Below, piece after piece: positions 25 to 49,979 of a stretch of DNA of 64,000 bases (positions are counted from its first letter, which is position 1; the number at the start of each line of letters is the position of its first letter). Both the position numbers and the translations under genes were made by a program. The notes beneath the pieces are model-generated. The model was not told the origin of the DNA. It ran no database searches and saw nothing but the letters and a program-made list of their open reading frames with translations. Source of the DNA: Escherichia phage teqskov. The DNA lies in the sequence record NC_054934.1. The stretch is one strand, 5' to 3'.

Positions 25-189
25 ATGAAAACGTTTAAAGAATTTATCAAAGAAGATATGGTCGCTGGAGATTCAGGTGGTAATCCTGAAAATATCTCTA
101 CTGGAACAACGTCAGGCGCTGTAGTAAATAAAGGTCCTGAACAGATTCCTAAAAAGAAAAAAGAGGAATCTAAAGAAAAAGAAGAGTAA
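25..189 (+). CDS. hypothetical small charged protein (54 aa)
   Basis: ATG-initiated 54-codon frame ending 3 nt before the primase start; Lys/Glu-rich C-terminus; below ORF-track cutoff; no recognised motif. Confidence 0.3.
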   Translation: MKTFKEFIKEDMVAGDSGGNPENISTGTTSGAVVNKGPEQIPKKKKEESKEKEE

Positions 190-191
190 AA

Positions 192-1220
192 ATGTCATCG
201 ATACCTTGGATTGATAATGAGTTTGCATATCGTGCATTAGCTCATTTACCTAAATTCACACAAGTAAATAATAGTTCAACTTTTAAATTGCGGTTTAGAT
301 GCCCTGTTTGTGGAGATTCAAAAACCGACCAAAATAAAGCCCGTGGATGGTATTATGGTGATAATAATGAAGGAAATATTCATTGTTATAACTGTAACTA
401 TCATGCACCAATCGGAATATATTTAAAGGAGTTTGAACCTGATTTATATCGTGAGTATATCTTTGAAATAAGAAAAGAAAAAGGTAAAAGTCGTCCAGTA
501 GAAAAACCTAAAGAACTTCCTAAACAACCTGAGAAGAAAATAATTAAATCTCTTCCGTCATGTGTTAGATTAGATAAACTGACGGAAGACCATCCAATTA
601 TAAAATACGTAAAAGCTCGCTGTATTCCAAAGGATAAATGGAAATATCTTTGGTTTACAACTGAATGGCCTAAATTAGTTAATAGCATAGCACCAGGAAC
701 ATATAAAAAGGAAATACCTGAGCCTCGTCTTGTTATTCCAATTTATAATGCTAATGGAAAAGCTGAGTCTTTTCAAGGGCGTGCATTAAAGAAAGATGCT
801 CCCCAAAAATATATCACCATCAAAGCTTATCCTGAGGCAACAAAAATCTATGGTGTTGAACGGGTTAAAGATGGTGATGTATATGTTCTAGAAGGACCTA
901 TAGATTCGCTTTTTATTGAAAATGGTATAGCTATTACGGGTGGTCAATTAGACCTAGAAATTGTTCCATTTAAAGATAGACGTGTATGGGTTTTAGATAA
1001 TGAACCTCGTCACCCTGACACTATTAAACGAATGACTAAATTAGTTGATGCAGGAGAAAGGGTTATGTTTTGGGACAAATCTCCCTGGAAATCAAAAGAT
1101 GTTAATGATATGATTAGAAAGGAAGGTGCAACCCCTGAACAAATTATGGAATATATGAAAAATAATATTGCCCAAGGGTTGATGGCTAAAATGCGGCTAT
1201 CTAAATATGCTAAGATTTAA
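192..1220 (+). CDS. 61: DNA primase gp61
   Basis: 342 aa, same length as T4 gp61; N-terminal Cys4 zinc ribbon (CPVCGDS...CYNCNYH); sequence recognised as T4-type primase. Confidence 0.9.
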   Translation: MSSIPWIDNEFAYRALAHLPKFTQVNNSSTFKLRFRCPVCGDSKTDQNKARGWYYGDNNEGNIHCYNCNYHAPIGIYLKEFEPDLYREYIFEIRKEKGKSRPVEKPKELPKQPEKKIIKSLPSCVRLDKLTEDHPIIKYVKARCIPKDKWKYLWFTTEWPKLVNSIAPGTYKKEIPEPRLVIPIYNANGKAESFQGRALKKDAPQKYITIKAYPEATKIYGVERVKDGDVYVLEGPIDSLFIENGIAITGGQLDLEIVPFKDRRVWVLDNEPRHPDTIKRMTKLVDAGERVMFWDKSPWKSKDVNDMIRKEGATPEQIMEYMKNNIAQGLMAKMRLSKYAKI

Positions 1221-1417
1221 ATTAACCCAACCAAAGCAAATGATAAATCTACGAATGTATCAAGAGTAATTACTGGAATATTAACACCATGAGCAATAGC
1301 AATTGGTGATAAAACAAAATTCCAGAGTAAAATTCCTACCGTAGCAGAAATAGTAAAAGCTATACGTTTTTTATTACCTTTTATGGCATTAACAAGTGCC
1401 ATTAATTTTTGTACCAT
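1217..1417 (-). CDS. hypothetical small membrane protein (66 aa), antisense to the early gene block
   Basis: Minus-strand ORF with strong SD (AAGGAGGA) 3-4 nt before ATG; two hydrophobic segments; sits in a 268-bp gap between 61 and 56. Confidence 0.45.
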   Translation of the reverse strand: MVQKLMALVNAIKGNKKRIAFTISATVGILLWNFVLSPIAIAHGVNIPVITLDTFVDLSFALVGLI

Positions 1418-1488
1418 ATGTCCTCCTTATTGCTTTATATATTTATTGTATAATTAATCTACTAAACCATGAATTGAAAGGAAAAATA

Positions 1489-2007
1489 ATGGCATACTTT
1501 AATGAATGTTCACAACTGATTGAAGGCGCTGATAAAGCTCAAAATGAATACTGGGATATTCTCGGTGATGAAAAAGACCCGCTGCAAGTTATGCTTGATA
1601 TGCAGAAATCTCTTCAGGTTCGTTTAGCTAAAGATAAACCTGAATATAACCGTCATCCTGATGATTTGGCTACCGCAGGCGAAGTTGTTGATTGGTTGCG
1701 TAATCAGAAAGATTATATTGATGATGAATTCCGCGAACTATTGACTTCTCTTGGTGGTATGAGCAATGGTGAAAAAGATGCATCTGCTGTATGGAAGCCT
1801 TGGAAAGCTCAACATGGTGAACGACGTGAAACTCTGATTACTGATTTGTCTCCACAAGACCAGTTGGAAATTAAATTCGAAATGATTGATATTCTTCATT
1901 TCGTTCTGAACATGTTCCAAGGTCTCGGTCTTACGGCTGAAGAAATCTTTAAACTTTATTATTTGAAAAATGCTGAAAACTTCGCTCGTCAAGACCGAGG
2001 TTATTAA
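1489..2007 (+). CDS. 56: dCTP pyrophosphatase gp56 (MazG-like)
   Basis: 172 aa from ATG at 1489 with RBS (T4 gp56 is 171 aa); all-alpha NTP-PPase acidic motifs (DDEFRELL, EIKFEMIDILHF). Confidence 0.85.
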   Translation: MAYFNECSQLIEGADKAQNEYWDILGDEKDPLQVMLDMQKSLQVRLAKDKPEYNRHPDDLATAGEVVDWLRNQKDYIDDEFRELLTSLGGMSNGEKDASAVWKPWKAQHGERRETLITDLSPQDQLEIKFEMIDILHFVLNMFQGLGLTAEEIFKLYYLKNAENFARQDRGY

Positions 2008-2231
2008 TGGCTCGTTTAAATAAACGCCAGCTTAAGAAAGCCCACAAGAAACGTATTGACCAGCTATTTAAAAATTATGACAAAGAGCTCACATACGAGC
2101 TCTTATCTAATCAGCTTCGTGCAGTTGATTGGGGTGTAGAAGAAGGTCTTGATGAAATTTTTGTCAGTAAAGAAGCCTTAAAATTAATTATAGAGCATTC
2201 AAATGAAAATATCCAAAGAAGAATTTATTAG
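2007..2231 (+). CDS. hypothetical protein (74 aa)
   Basis: ATG overlaps gp56 stop (TAATG); basic N-terminus; no recognised motif. Confidence 0.4.
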   Translation: MARLNKRQLKKAHKKRIDQLFKNYDKELTYELLSNQLRAVDWGVEEGLDEIFVSKEALKLIIEHSNENIQRRIY

Positions 2232-2376
2232 ACGACAAAAAGCTTTAATTAATTTACACGAGTGGTATGCCTATCAACTTAAAGTAGATAGCTCTAATAT
2301 AAATGCTGTAATGGCTTTATATAAACAAATTCAAGATGAACACGAATTCCTGGCACAAGTTTTCATTGAAGACTGA
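2203..2376 (+). CDS. hypothetical protein (57 aa), overlaps previous ORF out of frame
   Basis: ATG-initiated frame, 29-nt overlap with 2007..2231; could be a separate gene or the remnant of a frameshifted longer gene. Confidence 0.3.
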   Translation: MKISKEEFIRRQKALINLHEWYAYQLKVDSSNINAVMALYKQIQDEHEFLAQVFIED

Positions 2377-2384
2377 TATAAATA
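2377..2384 (+). promoter_or_regulatory. late promoter (TATAAATA) for soc
   Basis: Exact TATAAATA about 32 nt upstream of soc ATG. Confidence 0.55.
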
Positions 2385-2415
2385 CACCTGTAATTAAACA
2401 ATAAAGGAGTTTATT

Positions 2416-2652
2416 ATGGGTGGTTTCGTTAACATCAAGACCTTTACTCATCCAGCAGGTGAAGGCAAAGAAGTTAAAGGTATGGAAGTTTCTGTAGCAT
2501 TTGATGTATATTCAAATGAACACCGTATTGCAGATTCTCATTATCAAATCTTTCCGTCAGAAAAAGCAGCTTATTCTGATGTAGTTTCCGATGCAGCAAC
2601 TTGGAAAACTAAGAATGCTGCAATGTTTACACCTACAGAAATAGGTGGTTAA
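2416..2652 (+). CDS. soc: small outer capsid protein Soc
   Basis: 78 aa; conserved Soc segments VNIKTF, VAF, HYQ.FPSEKAAYS; preceded by late promoter, followed by terminator. Confidence 0.8.
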   Translation: MGGFVNIKTFTHPAGEGKEVKGMEVSVAFDVYSNEHRIADSHYQIFPSEKAAYSDVVSDAATWKTKNAAMFTPTEIGG

Positions 2653-2659
2653 TAATTCA

Positions 2660-2684
2660 AGGACTCCTTCGGGAGTCCTTTTTC
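2660..2684 (+). terminator. rho-independent terminator (UUCG tetraloop hairpin + T-tract)
   Basis: AGGACTCCTTCGGGAGTCCT followed by TTTTT; identical hairpin recurs at 55518. Confidence 0.75.
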
Positions 2685-2693
2685 ATTTAAATG

Positions 2694-2723
2694 GTTTACT
2701 TTCCAAAATGAGTATGGTATAAT
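2694..2723 (+). promoter_or_regulatory. early promoter
   Basis: GTTTAC -35, 18-bp spacer, TGGTATAAT extended -10. Confidence 0.55.
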
Positions 2724-2749
2724 AGAATTATCTTATAGAGGAGAGCACT

Positions 2750-2956
2750 ATGTTAAATCGCTGGATTAAACCAAATGAAGATTTAGATATTATCATTTCA
2801 CGGCATGTAATGAAGAAATATGAACTACAGCCATGGTCTACAGAAGTTGTTGTGCATTCATTTATGATGTACGCAGATGGTTCTGTCGAATTTAATGCAG
2901 AGATTCGATATGATTATGGCGAAAAGCAAGTCGAATTCAAAAGAGGCTTTTTGTAA
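2750..2956 (+). CDS. hypothetical protein (68 aa)
   Basis: ATG with AGAGGAGAG RBS; no recognised motif. Confidence 0.45.
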   Translation: MLNRWIKPNEDLDIIISRHVMKKYELQPWSTEVVVHSFMMYADGSVEFNAEIRYDYGEKQVEFKRGFL

Positions 2957-3297
2957 TGTTTATCTTTAATTGGTTTAAAAGTTTCTTTACGGATTTTTTC
3001 TCTACAACTCCCGGAGAAGGTGTAGTTCCTATTTCAAATGACTACCTTCCTTTAACTGTAGTTGAATATGTTTATATGGGAGATGGAACAGTAGAAGCAG
3101 TCACTATGACTTATGAAGAAGCCCAAGAATATTATAAAAATCCTTGGCGCTGGTCAACACCTACTACATCATCTAATGCACAGAAAACACAGTCTAGTTC
3201 TGATTCATATGATACAAATGTTCCTGTTTATGTATGGACGGGCGATTCATGTGGAAGTTCTTGTGATTCTAGTTGTTCATCTACATCTTGTGATTGA
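2956..3297 (+). CDS. hypothetical protein with Cys/Ser-rich C-terminal tail (113 aa)
   Basis: Hydrophobic N-terminus; C-terminal [18 protein letters not shown] low-complexity Cys repeat. Confidence 0.5.
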
Positions 3298-3305
3298 GGA
3301 AAATT

Positions 3306-3791
3306 ATGGAAGCGATTTTGTTTGAAATGTATATTAGCAGTAATAGTATGTCATTTGCTAAAGACGTTCCAATTACCGTAGCAGTAATGATTGATAAGGG
3401 TTATTGTGACCCAATGTATCTCGTAGAAAATTTCGTTTCAATGCCAGTTCCAGAAGATGCTGAAATAAAACTTAAAAAGATTGGTATTATTGAAACTGTA
3501 CCAAATATTCCGTTTAGAGCAATTGAAGCATTTACTAAATCCGAATACATTAATGTTAGCGCAGAACAATATAATGATAAACCTATATCTTTCTATTCGT
3601 ATGATTCAGTATATAGTTGGAAAATAGATAAAGGAAATAAATTTATAATTGTGAGTGAAGATGCTTTATCATACTTTATTTCTTCTATATGGAATAGTTT
3701 ACATCCAAATTTGCTAAAAATTCATGAATTTGATGATGCTCCTACTGTTGTTTTAGGTAAAACAGATGAAAGTTCTGAAGAAAATGCTTGA
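3306..3791 (+). CDS. hypothetical protein (161 aa)
   Basis: ATG at 3306 with GAGGA RBS (ORF-track start 3294 is TTG); same length as T4 Mrh but sequence identity not verifiable. Confidence 0.5.
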
Positions 3792-3969
3792 ATGGTTCAG
3801 TAGACCAAACTCAATGTATATTGACGATGGTTGGGTTGAACAGGCAAATAAAGAAATGCAGAACGAATCGGAAGAATGGATGAAATCTATGATTAAAGCT
3901 GAGCAAGAAAAGAAATTAGAGCGCTCAGCTCTTAAATTAATGAGAGATATTTACGGTGATAAATCATGA
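3784..3969 (+). CDS. hypothetical protein (about 61 aa)
   Basis: ATG overlapping stop of upstream gene; charged, helical-looking sequence. Confidence 0.4.
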
Positions 3970-4130
3970 GCAAAGATATGACGTTAGAAGAGGCCAAAGC
4001 AAAAGCAAATGAAGCAATGGATTTGCTTCTTAAAATTGGTAGTAAAATGATGGAAGAAAATGAGAAATACATTCAGGAAAACAAAATTCCTGACGGTCCA
4101 TTAGTAGGCAAAAGGAAATCACATGATTGA
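3966..4130 (+). CDS. hypothetical protein (54 aa)
   Basis: ATGA start/stop overlap with previous ORF; below ORF-track cutoff. Confidence 0.35.
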
Positions 4131-4593
4131 AGTAGCAAAACTATATTCAATAGAATTTATGTCTAAAGAAGGTAAATCAGTAAATACACTTGATAAAAAA
4201 TGCTCATTAATTATTCCTTTAGCAGAAAATCCGGATTTTTTAATTAAAGATATAAAAGAAAGAAAATATCCAGAAAATGTTATTCTAATTATAAAGCATA
4301 CTGAAGATATTTTGCAGAATACTGATTCACCGTTTTCTTCTTCCGAAGCTTTAACTATTAAAGGCTATAAAAGAGCTCATGAATATGGTCTTTTTGACAT
4401 GTTTGAAGACGATAAAGTTAAATTAGCGAGTCAACCTTCTAAAAGTAAAACATTCATTATTGAAGATATTAAAGATATAAATGCATTTGTTAAGATGGTC
4501 TGGGCTCATTTTGATGTTGGACTACGCTGGAGAATGTCCGAAGAAGAAAGAAAGATTATTGAAGCTAATCGTCAATTTGGTTTTTATCGCTAG
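4123..4593 (+). CDS. hypothetical protein (156 aa)
   Basis: ATG with AAAGGAAA RBS; no recognised motif. Confidence 0.5.
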
Positions 4594-49339: not shown

Positions 49340-49683
49340 GTAATACGACAGCAGGCTTGCTATTAATTGTAATTGCATTGGGCGGAACTTCTTTAATTTT
49401 AAAAAATAAAATTGAAAGATTAGAAACGTCTGTTGTAGAAATTACAAAAACGGCCAATGAAAACGCTTTAGCATTAAATAATTTGCGAATTCAGTATAAT
49501 TATATTGATGCGATGAATAATAAAAATCGTGAGGCAATTGCTGCTATTGAGCGTGAAAATGAAAAACTGCGCAAAGACGCAAAGAAGGCGGATGTGGTGG
49601 CTCATAAGCCAGGATTGGTTGAAAAACAAATCAACAACTCCTTCAACAAGTTCGCAGAAGACATCCAGGACCTTTCTAAATGA
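49330..49683 (+). CDS. i-spanin (inner membrane spanin subunit)
   Basis: N-terminal TM helix then coiled-coil-rich periplasmic region; immediately followed by a lipoprotein gene. Confidence 0.7.
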   Translation: MQLSNTTAGLLLIVIALGGTSLILKNKIERLETSVVEITKTANENALALNNLRIQYNYIDAMNNKNREAIAAIERENEKLRKDAKKADVVAHKPGLVEKQINNSFNKFAEDIQDLSK

Positions 49684-49979
49684 TTAAACTATCAACAGTA
49701 ATATTATCTATTGGTCTTCTAGTTGGTTGTTCGACAAAGCCTCTAGAAGTAAAGAAAGAAACAGTTCATCCTAATTGGCCTGTACAAATAAAGTCATATG
49801 ATGAAGCTAAACTATCTTGGCAAGTTAAAGTTATTGATGGTAAAGCTTGGGTCGGTATGCCATTTGAAGATTCCCAGGAATTTCGCATTTGGCTTAATGA
49901 TGTAAAACGATATGTACATGATCAGAAAACTATGATATGTTATTATCGTCAAGAGTTAAAAGAGGATAAATGCAAATGA
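49680..49979 (+). CDS. o-spanin (outer membrane lipoprotein spanin subunit)
   Basis: Signal peptide with lipobox LVGC; ATGA overlap with i-spanin stop. Confidence 0.7.
   Translation: MIKLSTVILSIGLLVGCSTKPLEVKKETVHPNWPVQIKSYDEAKLSWQVKVIDGKAWVGMPFEDSQEFRIWLNDVKRYVHDQKTMICYYRQELKEDKCK

Follow-up and report, generated by a model that had tools for sequence, protein, structure and literature searches.

A conserved cysteine-aspartate tail on the T4-type protein Mrh.1 of Escherichia phage teqskov

Cys-rich protein segments are familiar from metallothioneins and from Cys/His-rich metal-binding tails such as that of SlyD, and the C-terminal tail of the class Ia ribonucleotide reductase (RNR) protein NrdA acts as a redox shuttle. 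In the DsrC/TusE proteins, a strictly conserved penultimate Cys on a flexible C-terminus carries sulfur, and in DsrC a second Cys lies about 10-11 residues upstream of it (PMC3397948). The protein analyzed here, encoded on the plus strand at positions 2956..3297 of a 64,000-nucleotide stretch of Escherichia phage teqskov (NC_054934.1; the whole stretch is referred to as the window), also ends in a Cys-bearing tail. It corresponds to Mrh.1 of phage T4, the product of a named and already catalogued gene (mrh.1, family DUF7206) of which the window holds an ordinary copy; its tail motif is moderately interesting and unexplained. In the literature searched, neither T4 mrh.1 nor DUF7206 was found in the main text of a paper, and the data came only from supplements. 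Strictly conserved tail chemistry in the family is limited to two thiols, each beside an Asp carboxylate, the second of these pairs standing at the free C-terminus. The tail is read here, as a preferred guess held with low confidence, as a flexible thiol/carboxylate arm that may chelate metal.

Identity of the gene and conservation of its tail

The open reading frame (ORF) has an ATG start, 113 codons for amino acids (aa), and a TGA stop (ORF list). The product matched Pfam PF23836 (DUF7206; cut-off 25.6) with 101.3 bits, its residues 3-113 covering positions 1-107 of the 107 in the profile, and phrog_2031 (PHROG 2031) with E = 6.5e-33. Its identity to the T4T phage protein Mrh.1 was 96%, without any change in the tail, and the two family motifs, the EYVYMGDG..E hairpin and the C-terminal S-C-D...S-C-D, were both present. 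Together with synteny (see below), the profile match and the identity show it to be the orthologue of T4 mrh.1. The gene and its parts are as follows.

2956..3297, plus strand: mrh.1 orthologue, 113 aa and TGA stop (PF23836 DUF7206, phrog_2031, 96% identity to T4T)
2956..3003, plus strand: residues 1-16, aromatic amphipathic N-terminal helix (AlphaFold2 helix 3-15), a module common to the Srh family
3055..3156, plus strand: residues 34-67, beta-hairpin with the near-invariant EYVYMGDG..E, then a helix (AlphaFold2 strands 34-40 and 46-52, helix 53-67)
3157..3237, plus strand: residues 68-94, Ser/Thr-rich variable linker, predicted disordered, with most of the within-genus variation
3238..3294, plus strand: residues 95-113, the tail, with Cys107 and Cys112 family-wide and Cys99 and Cys103 Tequatrovirus-specific

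An earlier note on the window had described a Cys/Ser-rich C-terminal tail with the pattern C-x3-C-x3-C-x4-C. The sequence reads exactly so (Cys99, Cys103, Cys107, and Cys112); the length of 20 residues given there does not hold, the quoted tail being 18 residues long. The tail is masked by BLAST as low complexity. As the long ORFs of the window contain only 1.2% Cys and 7.1% Ser, a stretch with four Cys and at least eight Ser per 18 residues is far from chance expectation; per position, the probability of at least four Cys in 18 residues is 6e-5, and that of at least nine Ser is 1e-6. Such a tail was found on none of the other plausible genes of the 64 kb, and the only other ORF with at least four Cys in 18 residues (70 aa, minus strand) was taken as noise. 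An RNA element or antisense gene beneath mrh.1 was rejected: the Rfam scan of 2300-4200 gave no match inside mrh.1 and two weak matches only, both upstream of it, and the ORF list contains no minus-strand ORF of at least 30 aa beneath 2956-3297. Endings of the form C-x(2-10)-C-x(1-2) were found in 3 of the 161 window ORFs of at least 50 aa. These are Mrh.1, the phage NrdA (43671-45935), whose ending EDCSSCKL is the known redox tail, and a lipoprotein-like ORF of 99 aa (49680-49979), which begins MIKLSTVILSIGLLVGC and ends CYYRQELKEDKCK.

The survey of the family used an alignment of 114 full-length members with a mean column identity of 25%; full-length DUF7206 proteins are 90-164 aa long. The profile search returned 122 clusters, and among the listed matches all but two short fragments had previously been annotated as PF23836. 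Single-sequence searches returned close relatives only (7 clusters in one, 10 proteins in another); one of the 10, the eukaryotic repeat protein P0012, was rejected as spurious. All members found belong to T4-like (Tevenvirinae) phages of Enterobacterales. The phages of the named members infect Escherichia, Salmonella, Enterobacter, Cronobacter, Serratia, and Edwardsiella, and tblastn adds phages of Shigella, Klebsiella, Citrobacter, Kosakonia, and Yersinia. The conserved blocks are the N-terminal M-x-x-W-[LI]-K-x-[LF]-F...P, the segment EYVYMGDG-x-x-E-x-V, a short hydrophobic stretch, and the C-terminal tail. G44 is invariant, and E37, Y40, G42, D43, E47, and V49 are retained in at least 90% of the members.

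Of all parts of the family proteins, the tail is one of the best conserved. The penultimate Cys is invariant (114/114); the proteins end in Cys-Asp in 112 cases and in Cys-Asn in the other two, and 108 of the 114 have exactly two Cys within the last 30 residues, 5-10 apart. Ser precedes the first conserved Cys in 94% of the members, Asp follows it in 87%, and then Ser in 97%; Asp stands directly after the last Cys in 98%. The family tail motif is [YS]-D-S-G-S-C-D-S-[SG]n-S-C-D-COOH. The last 25 residues consist of 43% Ser, 14% Asp, 14% Gly, 8% Cys, and 8% Tyr, and K, R, H, E, Q, L, I, and M never occur in the last 20 residues of any of the 114 sequences.

The regular four-Cys spacing is a lineage-specific elaboration of this simpler motif. 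The C-x3-C-x3-C-x4-C ladder was present in only four clusters, all of T4-type sequences; no T4-type sequence read departed from it, the representative of a cluster with 515 members among them. In the codon alignment, T4 Cys99 corresponds to Ser elsewhere (TCT>TGT) and T4 Cys103 to Tyr (TAT>TGT), and the extra Cys of Tequatrovirus are thus single-base changes from Ser and Tyr codons. One extra tail Cys each, in differing sequence contexts, was seen in P0054 and P0117; with the T4 type, these are read as three separate gains, without placement on a tree. Conservation of the Cys in homologues, on which the earlier note had let its proposal depend, holds family-wide for the last two Cys and fails for the first two and for the x3/x3/x4 spacing, which are confined to Tequatrovirus.

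The codons for Ser (TCN/AGY), Cys (TGT/TGC), and Asp (GAT/GAC) vary synonymously between lineages and the downstream genes differ too, so it is the peptide that is constrained, not the nucleic acid. In the 164-aa member P0003 (Escherichia phage 235Ecol030PP), a Mosigvirus-type linker of ~50 residues is inserted between an N-terminal half and a four-Cys tail that are both of the T4 type. This natural chimera points to modular recombination within the gene in which the tail was retained.

Protein layout, genomic slot, and expression

From the alignment of 114 sequences, AlphaFold2 models were made of the window protein and of one Mosigvirus-type member. The hairpin and helix (residues 34-67) are predicted to be the only confidently folded part of Mrh.1: the predicted local distance difference test (pLDDT) score was 77-86 for the blocks over residues 31-60 and mostly below 50 for residues 70-113, and the Mosigvirus-type member gave the same picture. 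No relatives of solved structure were found by the PDB sequence profile search (nothing below E = 0.24). Foldseek of the model against PDB gave nothing below E = 1.7 and is uninformative, as the model contains only ~35 confident residues.

The earlier note had also proposed a hydrophobic N-terminus and, possibly, a membrane-anchored peptide. The N-terminus is indeed aromatic, with eight Phe/Trp in residues 2-15; in most lineages it is Lys-rich (MISWLKNLFKTK). The predicted helix comprises 13-16 residues interrupted by Lys8 and Asp13, with a mean Eisenberg hydrophobicity of 0.05-0.5 and a hydrophobic moment of 0.39-0.52. A membrane-spanning helix or signal peptide was rejected, the segment being too short and polar and having no uninterrupted hydrophobic stretch of ~18-20 residues. 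The anchor of the earlier note is not supported as a membrane-spanning one, and peripheral docking of the helix to a membrane, or docking to a protein, is possible.

The first ~15 residues form a module, M..W[LI]K[ND][WL][LF]...P, which is common to the Mrh.1 and Srh families. With hhalign, the first 30 residues of the two families scored 26.0 (P = 3.7e-6, probability 87%), and 200 column-shuffled controls scored 6.9±1.7 with a maximum of 12.1. As an example, a DUF7206 member starts with MKMNPLPWIKSWFETKP and a Karamvirus-type Srh with MKLNPLPWIKNWLSQP. No other ORF of the window carried it, and in Mosigvirus-type genomes srh directly follows mrh.1. The module may serve both proteins as a peptide for docking or targeting. 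The remainder of Srh is, unlike that of Mrh.1, helical and ends IYGDKS, with neither the hairpin motif nor the Cys tail. Srh is annotated as 'decoy of host sigma32' in T4. Mimicry of a sigma-32 "RpoH-box" by the Mrh.1 N-terminus (WLKNLFKTKPG against FFNLRKTKQRLG) was rejected, as RpoH scored no better than shuffled RpoH: the hidden Markov model (HMM) of the Mrh.1 N-terminus gave -2.0 bits on E. coli RpoH, and 788 of the 843 shuffles that scored (2000 generated) were as good or better. The Srh HMM gave 2.9 bits on E. coli RpoH, matched by 153 of 2000 shuffles. Separately, an ORF of 81-84 aa downstream of modA.2 in two Mosigvirus/Dhakavirus-type loci (L008, 4329-4574; L010, 4357-4611) begins ..MNWLTNIP and has a hydrophobic C-terminus; its middle is rich in Ser and Tyr (SSYSSCQS in one locus, SSYETKSSYTSYTQS in the other). 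The ORF loosely recalls the N-terminus and composition of Mrh.1.

The window is from a T4-type (Tequatrovirus) genome, and many Escherichia and Shigella phages share this region at ~97-98% identity. Immediately upstream of it, the identity to phages JK1 and TadeuszReichstein is 99.9%. The gene order on the plus strand is primase 61, dCTPase 56, soc, mrh.2, mrh.1, mrh, srh, modA.4, modA.3, modA.2, modB, modA, srd, and dda, and the cluster around mrh.1 consists of early host-takeover genes. The soc - mrh.2 - mrh.1 - mrh slot matches the annotated neighbours in related genomes. The gene was always located in this cluster, between soc and the genes for the Mod ADP-ribosyltransferases. In the most divergent members, mrh.1 still lies between soc and genes for MRH, Y01E, Mod ADP-ribosyltransferase, and dda, and mrh.2 is missing from some distant relatives. 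The features next to mrh.1 are listed below.

2659..2680, plus strand: intrinsic-terminator-like hairpin after soc, with a 9-bp stem (5 GC pairs) and then a T-rich stretch (TTTCATTTAA)
2695..2723, plus strand: sigma-70 early-type promoter TTTACT-17-TATAAT with an upstream TG (extended -10), 10/12 match, the best in the region, just ahead of mrh.2
2750..2956, plus strand: mrh.2 homologue (68 aa, phrog_1873), whose TAA stop overlaps the mrh.1 ATG (TAATG)
2941..2946, plus strand: Shine-Dalgarno sequence AAGAGG, 9 nucleotides before the mrh.1 ATG, read from the sequence
3306..3791, plus strand: mrh (T4_MRH family), the next gene downstream, whose Shine-Dalgarno sequence GAGGAAA overlaps the mrh.1 stop codon
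3766..3969, plus strand: srh (67 aa); its first ~15 residues match the Mrh.1 N-terminal module

The hairpin divides the late transcript of soc from the early unit of mrh.2. With this hairpin after soc and the promoter just before mrh.2, the genes mrh.2, mrh.1, and mrh look like an early transcription unit behind the promoter at 2695..2723. The overlap of mrh.2 and mrh.1 is kept, as ATGA, in three distant genera read (L008, L010, and L012).

In time-resolved omics of T4, mrh.1 RNA was classed as "early", and in the same T4 proteome Mrh and Mrh.2 were detected while Mrh.1 was "NA" (PMC9697503 supplement). The tryptic peptides of T4 Mrh.1 are 8, 53, 4, and 48 aa long, and its non-detection was therefore to be expected and means little. 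CRISPRi-ART knock-down of T4 mrh.1 was scored Semi-Fit (0.79, p 0.069), and that screen singled the gene out together with four other Semi-Fit T4 genes whose function is wholly unknown. In HIDEN-SEQ transposon sequencing, insertions were recovered at all 31 TA sites of T4 mrh.1, which makes it non-essential (bioRxiv 10.1101/2025.11.20.689424). A defence or anti-defence role was rejected: the PADLOC scan returned nothing for Mrh.1, and the single HIDEN-SEQ comparison table showed no significant change for mrh.1 (q = 1.0). On these omics, knock-down, and transposon data, mrh.1 is an accessory early gene whose benefit to phage fitness on laboratory E. coli is small at most. Translation of the ORF, which the earlier note had presupposed, is supported indirectly by the protein-level constraint, the good Shine-Dalgarno sequence, translational coupling, the early T4 RNA, and the Semi-Fit knock-down.

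Some further observations concern the surroundings of mrh.1. ModA.3 (4123-4593) matches T4_MRH, the Pfam family of Mrh (3306-3791), with E = 1.9e-38, and the cluster thus holds two MRH paralogues; in genomes without mrh directly after mrh.1, the ModA.3-type copy is the only MRH copy. Unlike in T4 and phage ACG-C40, the dam methyltransferase gene is absent between primase 61 (end 1220) and dCTPase 56 (start 1489). In its place at 1217-1489 is a hydrophobic ORF of 66 aa on the minus strand (1217-1417), and some related records label one gene of this stretch 'putative membrane protein'. At least 80% of window positions 1100-2450 is covered in one place by 117 of 728 matching phage records, which suggests that these 117 share the dam-less 61-56 arrangement. 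Between gene 56 and soc (2007-2376) lies a pair of small ORFs (74 and 57 aa) that overlap each other; this slot holds the SegF homing endonuclease in T4 and an HNH/SegA-like endonuclease in ACG-C40, and appears to be variable and mobile-element-prone. Upstream of primase 61, a 54-aa ORF at 25-189 (plus strand) has the same length as T4 gene 61.1 (165 nucleotides) and, by length and position, is probably that gene. It begins MKTFKEFIKED, which resembles MKTYQEFIAE, the capsid-targeting sequence of T4 internal proteins, and the remainder is Gly/Ser/Lys/Glu-rich.

Possible roles of the tail

We infer that the tail works through thiol chemistry. The metal-binding tail suggested in the earlier note is plausible and remains the leading guess, at low confidence. 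Chelation is preferred because the Cys-Asp pairing is conserved while the spacing is variable, and because extra Cys occur in three contexts and one position is Tyr or Cys. The retention of the tail on a linker swap (P0003) and the variable Cys-Cys spacing favour ligand chemistry over rigid docking. In such a mechanism, the folded part and the N-terminal helix would attach Mrh.1 to a host partner or to the surface of the inner membrane. A soft metal ion, for example Zn, Fe, Ni, or Cu, would be chelated by the two Cys-Asp pairs of the tail and the free terminal carboxylate, with the ligands coming from a single chain or from more than one. Through the Ser>Cys and Tyr>Cys changes, the T4 lineage would have gone from two thiol ligands to four, turning a Cys2Asp2 arm into a Cys4 arm.

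Several points weigh against this preferred reading. Mrh.1 has no metal-binding family match in Pfam or NCBIfam, and family-wide there are only two Cys, without CxC or CxxC pairs. The tail is predicted to be disordered and would thus have no preformed site. Chelation does not obviously need an end exactly one residue past the last Cys (114/114), and the fixed free C-terminus points equally to recognition by a partner. Glu never replaces Asp and Thr rarely replaces Ser, which is stricter than simple chelation requires. In addition, Mrh.1 was not seen by proteomics (one T4 proteome), the gene is dispensable in transposon screens, and the searched literature contains no experiment on the Mrh.1 protein itself.

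The free terminal position and the invariant penultimate Cys fit better with the main rival explanation, which is nevertheless considered rather unlikely. The tail would here be a free-standing decoy or pseudosubstrate that mimics host "swinging arms" carrying electrons or sulfur, and it would divert or block a thiol relay early in infection. Candidate partners are thioredoxin/glutaredoxin, the RNR active site, and IscS/TusBCD/MnmA or similar. The arm is disordered in the models and always terminal, with its second Cys 5-10 residues upstream of the invariant one, and insertion into a partner pocket would explain the exact terminal position naturally. The penultimate Cys has its counterpart in DsrC/TusE, and the second Cys of DsrC stands 11 residues earlier (PMC3397948). 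The endings of E. coli NrdA (DDGCESGACKI) and of the phage NrdA look like the family tail, and C-x(2-10)-C-x(1-2) endings are rare among the window ORFs. The likeness is, however, architectural and compositional only, with no homology to DsrC/TusE or RNR. The TusE arm is basic and hydrophobic (KPVKCI), whereas the Mrh.1 tail is acidic and Ser-rich, and the extra Cys of the T4 type could mispair in a redox arm. A metal chelator or a decoy thiol arm, if true, would be a new way for a phage to touch host metal or thiol metabolism.

In a bolder proposal, judged quite unlikely, Mrh.1 would be a phage-made, free-standing swinging-arm peptide whose tail copies the thiol arms of RNR or TusE/DsrC and which the Srh-like module delivers to a host partner, where it would plug into, drain, or poison a thiol, sulfur, or metal relay during the early takeover. 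As a variant, the Mrh.1 tail itself could be covalently modified. Such a peptide, if true, would represent a type of anti-host effector that has not been described for phages.

A weaker form of the membrane-anchored peptide of the earlier note, in which the N-terminal helix attaches to the inner membrane from the cytoplasmic side while the Ser-rich tail serves as hydrophilic spacer or bristle, is also unlikely. The hydrophobic moment of the helix (given above) is comparable with those of the MinD and FtsA membrane-targeting helices, Phe and Trp are very abundant in the T4-type N-terminus, and peripheral binding is compatible with either tail model. The 16-residue segment, with Lys8 and Asp13 and Lys-rich in other lineages, is too short and polar to span a membrane, however, and has no signal-peptide-like region. 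The same module on Srh, annotated as a sigma-32 decoy, means that it may be a protein-docking peptide, and a mere spacer would not retain two invariant Cys and a fixed Cys-Asp end.

A functionless tail is already disfavoured. In that explanation, which is very unlikely, the N-terminal helix and the hairpin alone are functional, and the tail is a tolerated low-complexity extension without a specific role. The predicted disorder, the dispensability of mrh.1 in the laboratory, and the ease with which Ser-rich runs arise would agree with it. Against it stand the high conservation of the tail in a family of such low column identity, the two invariant Cys, the fixed Cys-Asp end, the exclusion of eight residue types, the synonymous codon turnover in the tail, and its retention across linker swaps.

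Least probable of all, and rejected as a family membership, is a precursor like those of ribosomally synthesized and post-translationally modified peptides (RiPPs), with the helix and hairpin as leader and the terminal Ser/Cys-rich tail as a core modified by lanthionine-type thioethers or other Cys/Ser chemistry: the layout would suit it and the tail matched the FxLD-family lanthipeptide precursor model TIGR04363 (E = 0.011), but at 15.8 bits this is below the cut-off of 30 and was seen in 3 of 114 members, all T4-type, and thus reflects composition, the "core" is conserved as much as the "leader", which is unusual in RiPPs, and no Lan, radical-SAM, YcaO, dehydratase, cyclase, or cyclodehydratase family was found among the mrh.1 neighbours in the genomes examined (those read were Soc, Mrh.2, T4_MRH, Srh, Y01E, Mod ADP-ribosyltransferases, Srd, and Dda).

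As a near-identical copy of a catalogued, lab-dispensable T4 gene, the ORF has little discovery value and would not surprise a T4 specialist. The sharper description of the family gives a handle on one of the roughly 130 uncharacterised genes of T4. The tail motif of interest is S-C-D…S-C-D-COOH with its invariant penultimate Cys, always at the free C-terminus, and not the T4-specific four-Cys ladder, and it belongs to a protein that is invisible to tryptic proteomics.

Comparison with known systems

Like metallothioneins and Cys-rich tails, the T4-type Mrh.1 has its Cys in a flexible Ser/Gly-rich sequence, with 22% Cys and a GDSC/SC-repeat look. Unlike metallothionein, the tail has neither CxC/CxxC clusters nor His, most members have two Cys in it, and there was no HMM match. 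Metallothionein or another Cys-cluster peptide was accordingly rejected, on the x3/x3/x4 spacing, the 108 of 114 members with two tail Cys only, and the missing HMM match. A structural Cys4 zinc finger or knuckle was rejected as well: two of the Cys are lineage-specific, the spacing is variable, and the tail had a pLDDT below 50 in two models.

Class Ia RNR NrdA resembles Mrh.1 in its flexible, acidic, Ser/Gly-containing C-terminal tail with a Cys pair near the free end. A D-x-G..C-[DE]-S..C-x(1-2)-end look is common to the E. coli and phage NrdA tails and the family tail YDSGSCDSSSSSCD. Mrh.1 differs in having no reductase domain, in a Cys spacing of 5-10 instead of 2-4, and in ending in Cys-Asp instead of Cys-Lys-Ile or Cys-Lys-Leu, and the two are not homologous. 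With DsrC/TusE, Mrh.1 shares the penultimate Cys on a C-terminal arm predicted to be disordered (114/114). Membership of that family was rejected, as Pfam gave only DUF7206 at E <= 1 and no TusE or DsrC model of NCBIfam matched at E <= 10; the Mrh.1 tail is also Ser/Asp-rich, unlike the conserved arm sequence of DsrC/TusE. The likenesses to NrdA and DsrC/TusE are those of architecture and composition, not of homology.

The closest described system is Mrh.1 of phage T4 itself (UniProt P20706). The window protein is 96% identical to it over the full length, occupies the same slot between mrh.2 and mrh, and has the identical four-Cys tail; the four substitutions between them all lie in residues 75-95, that is, in the linker and the first residue of the tail.

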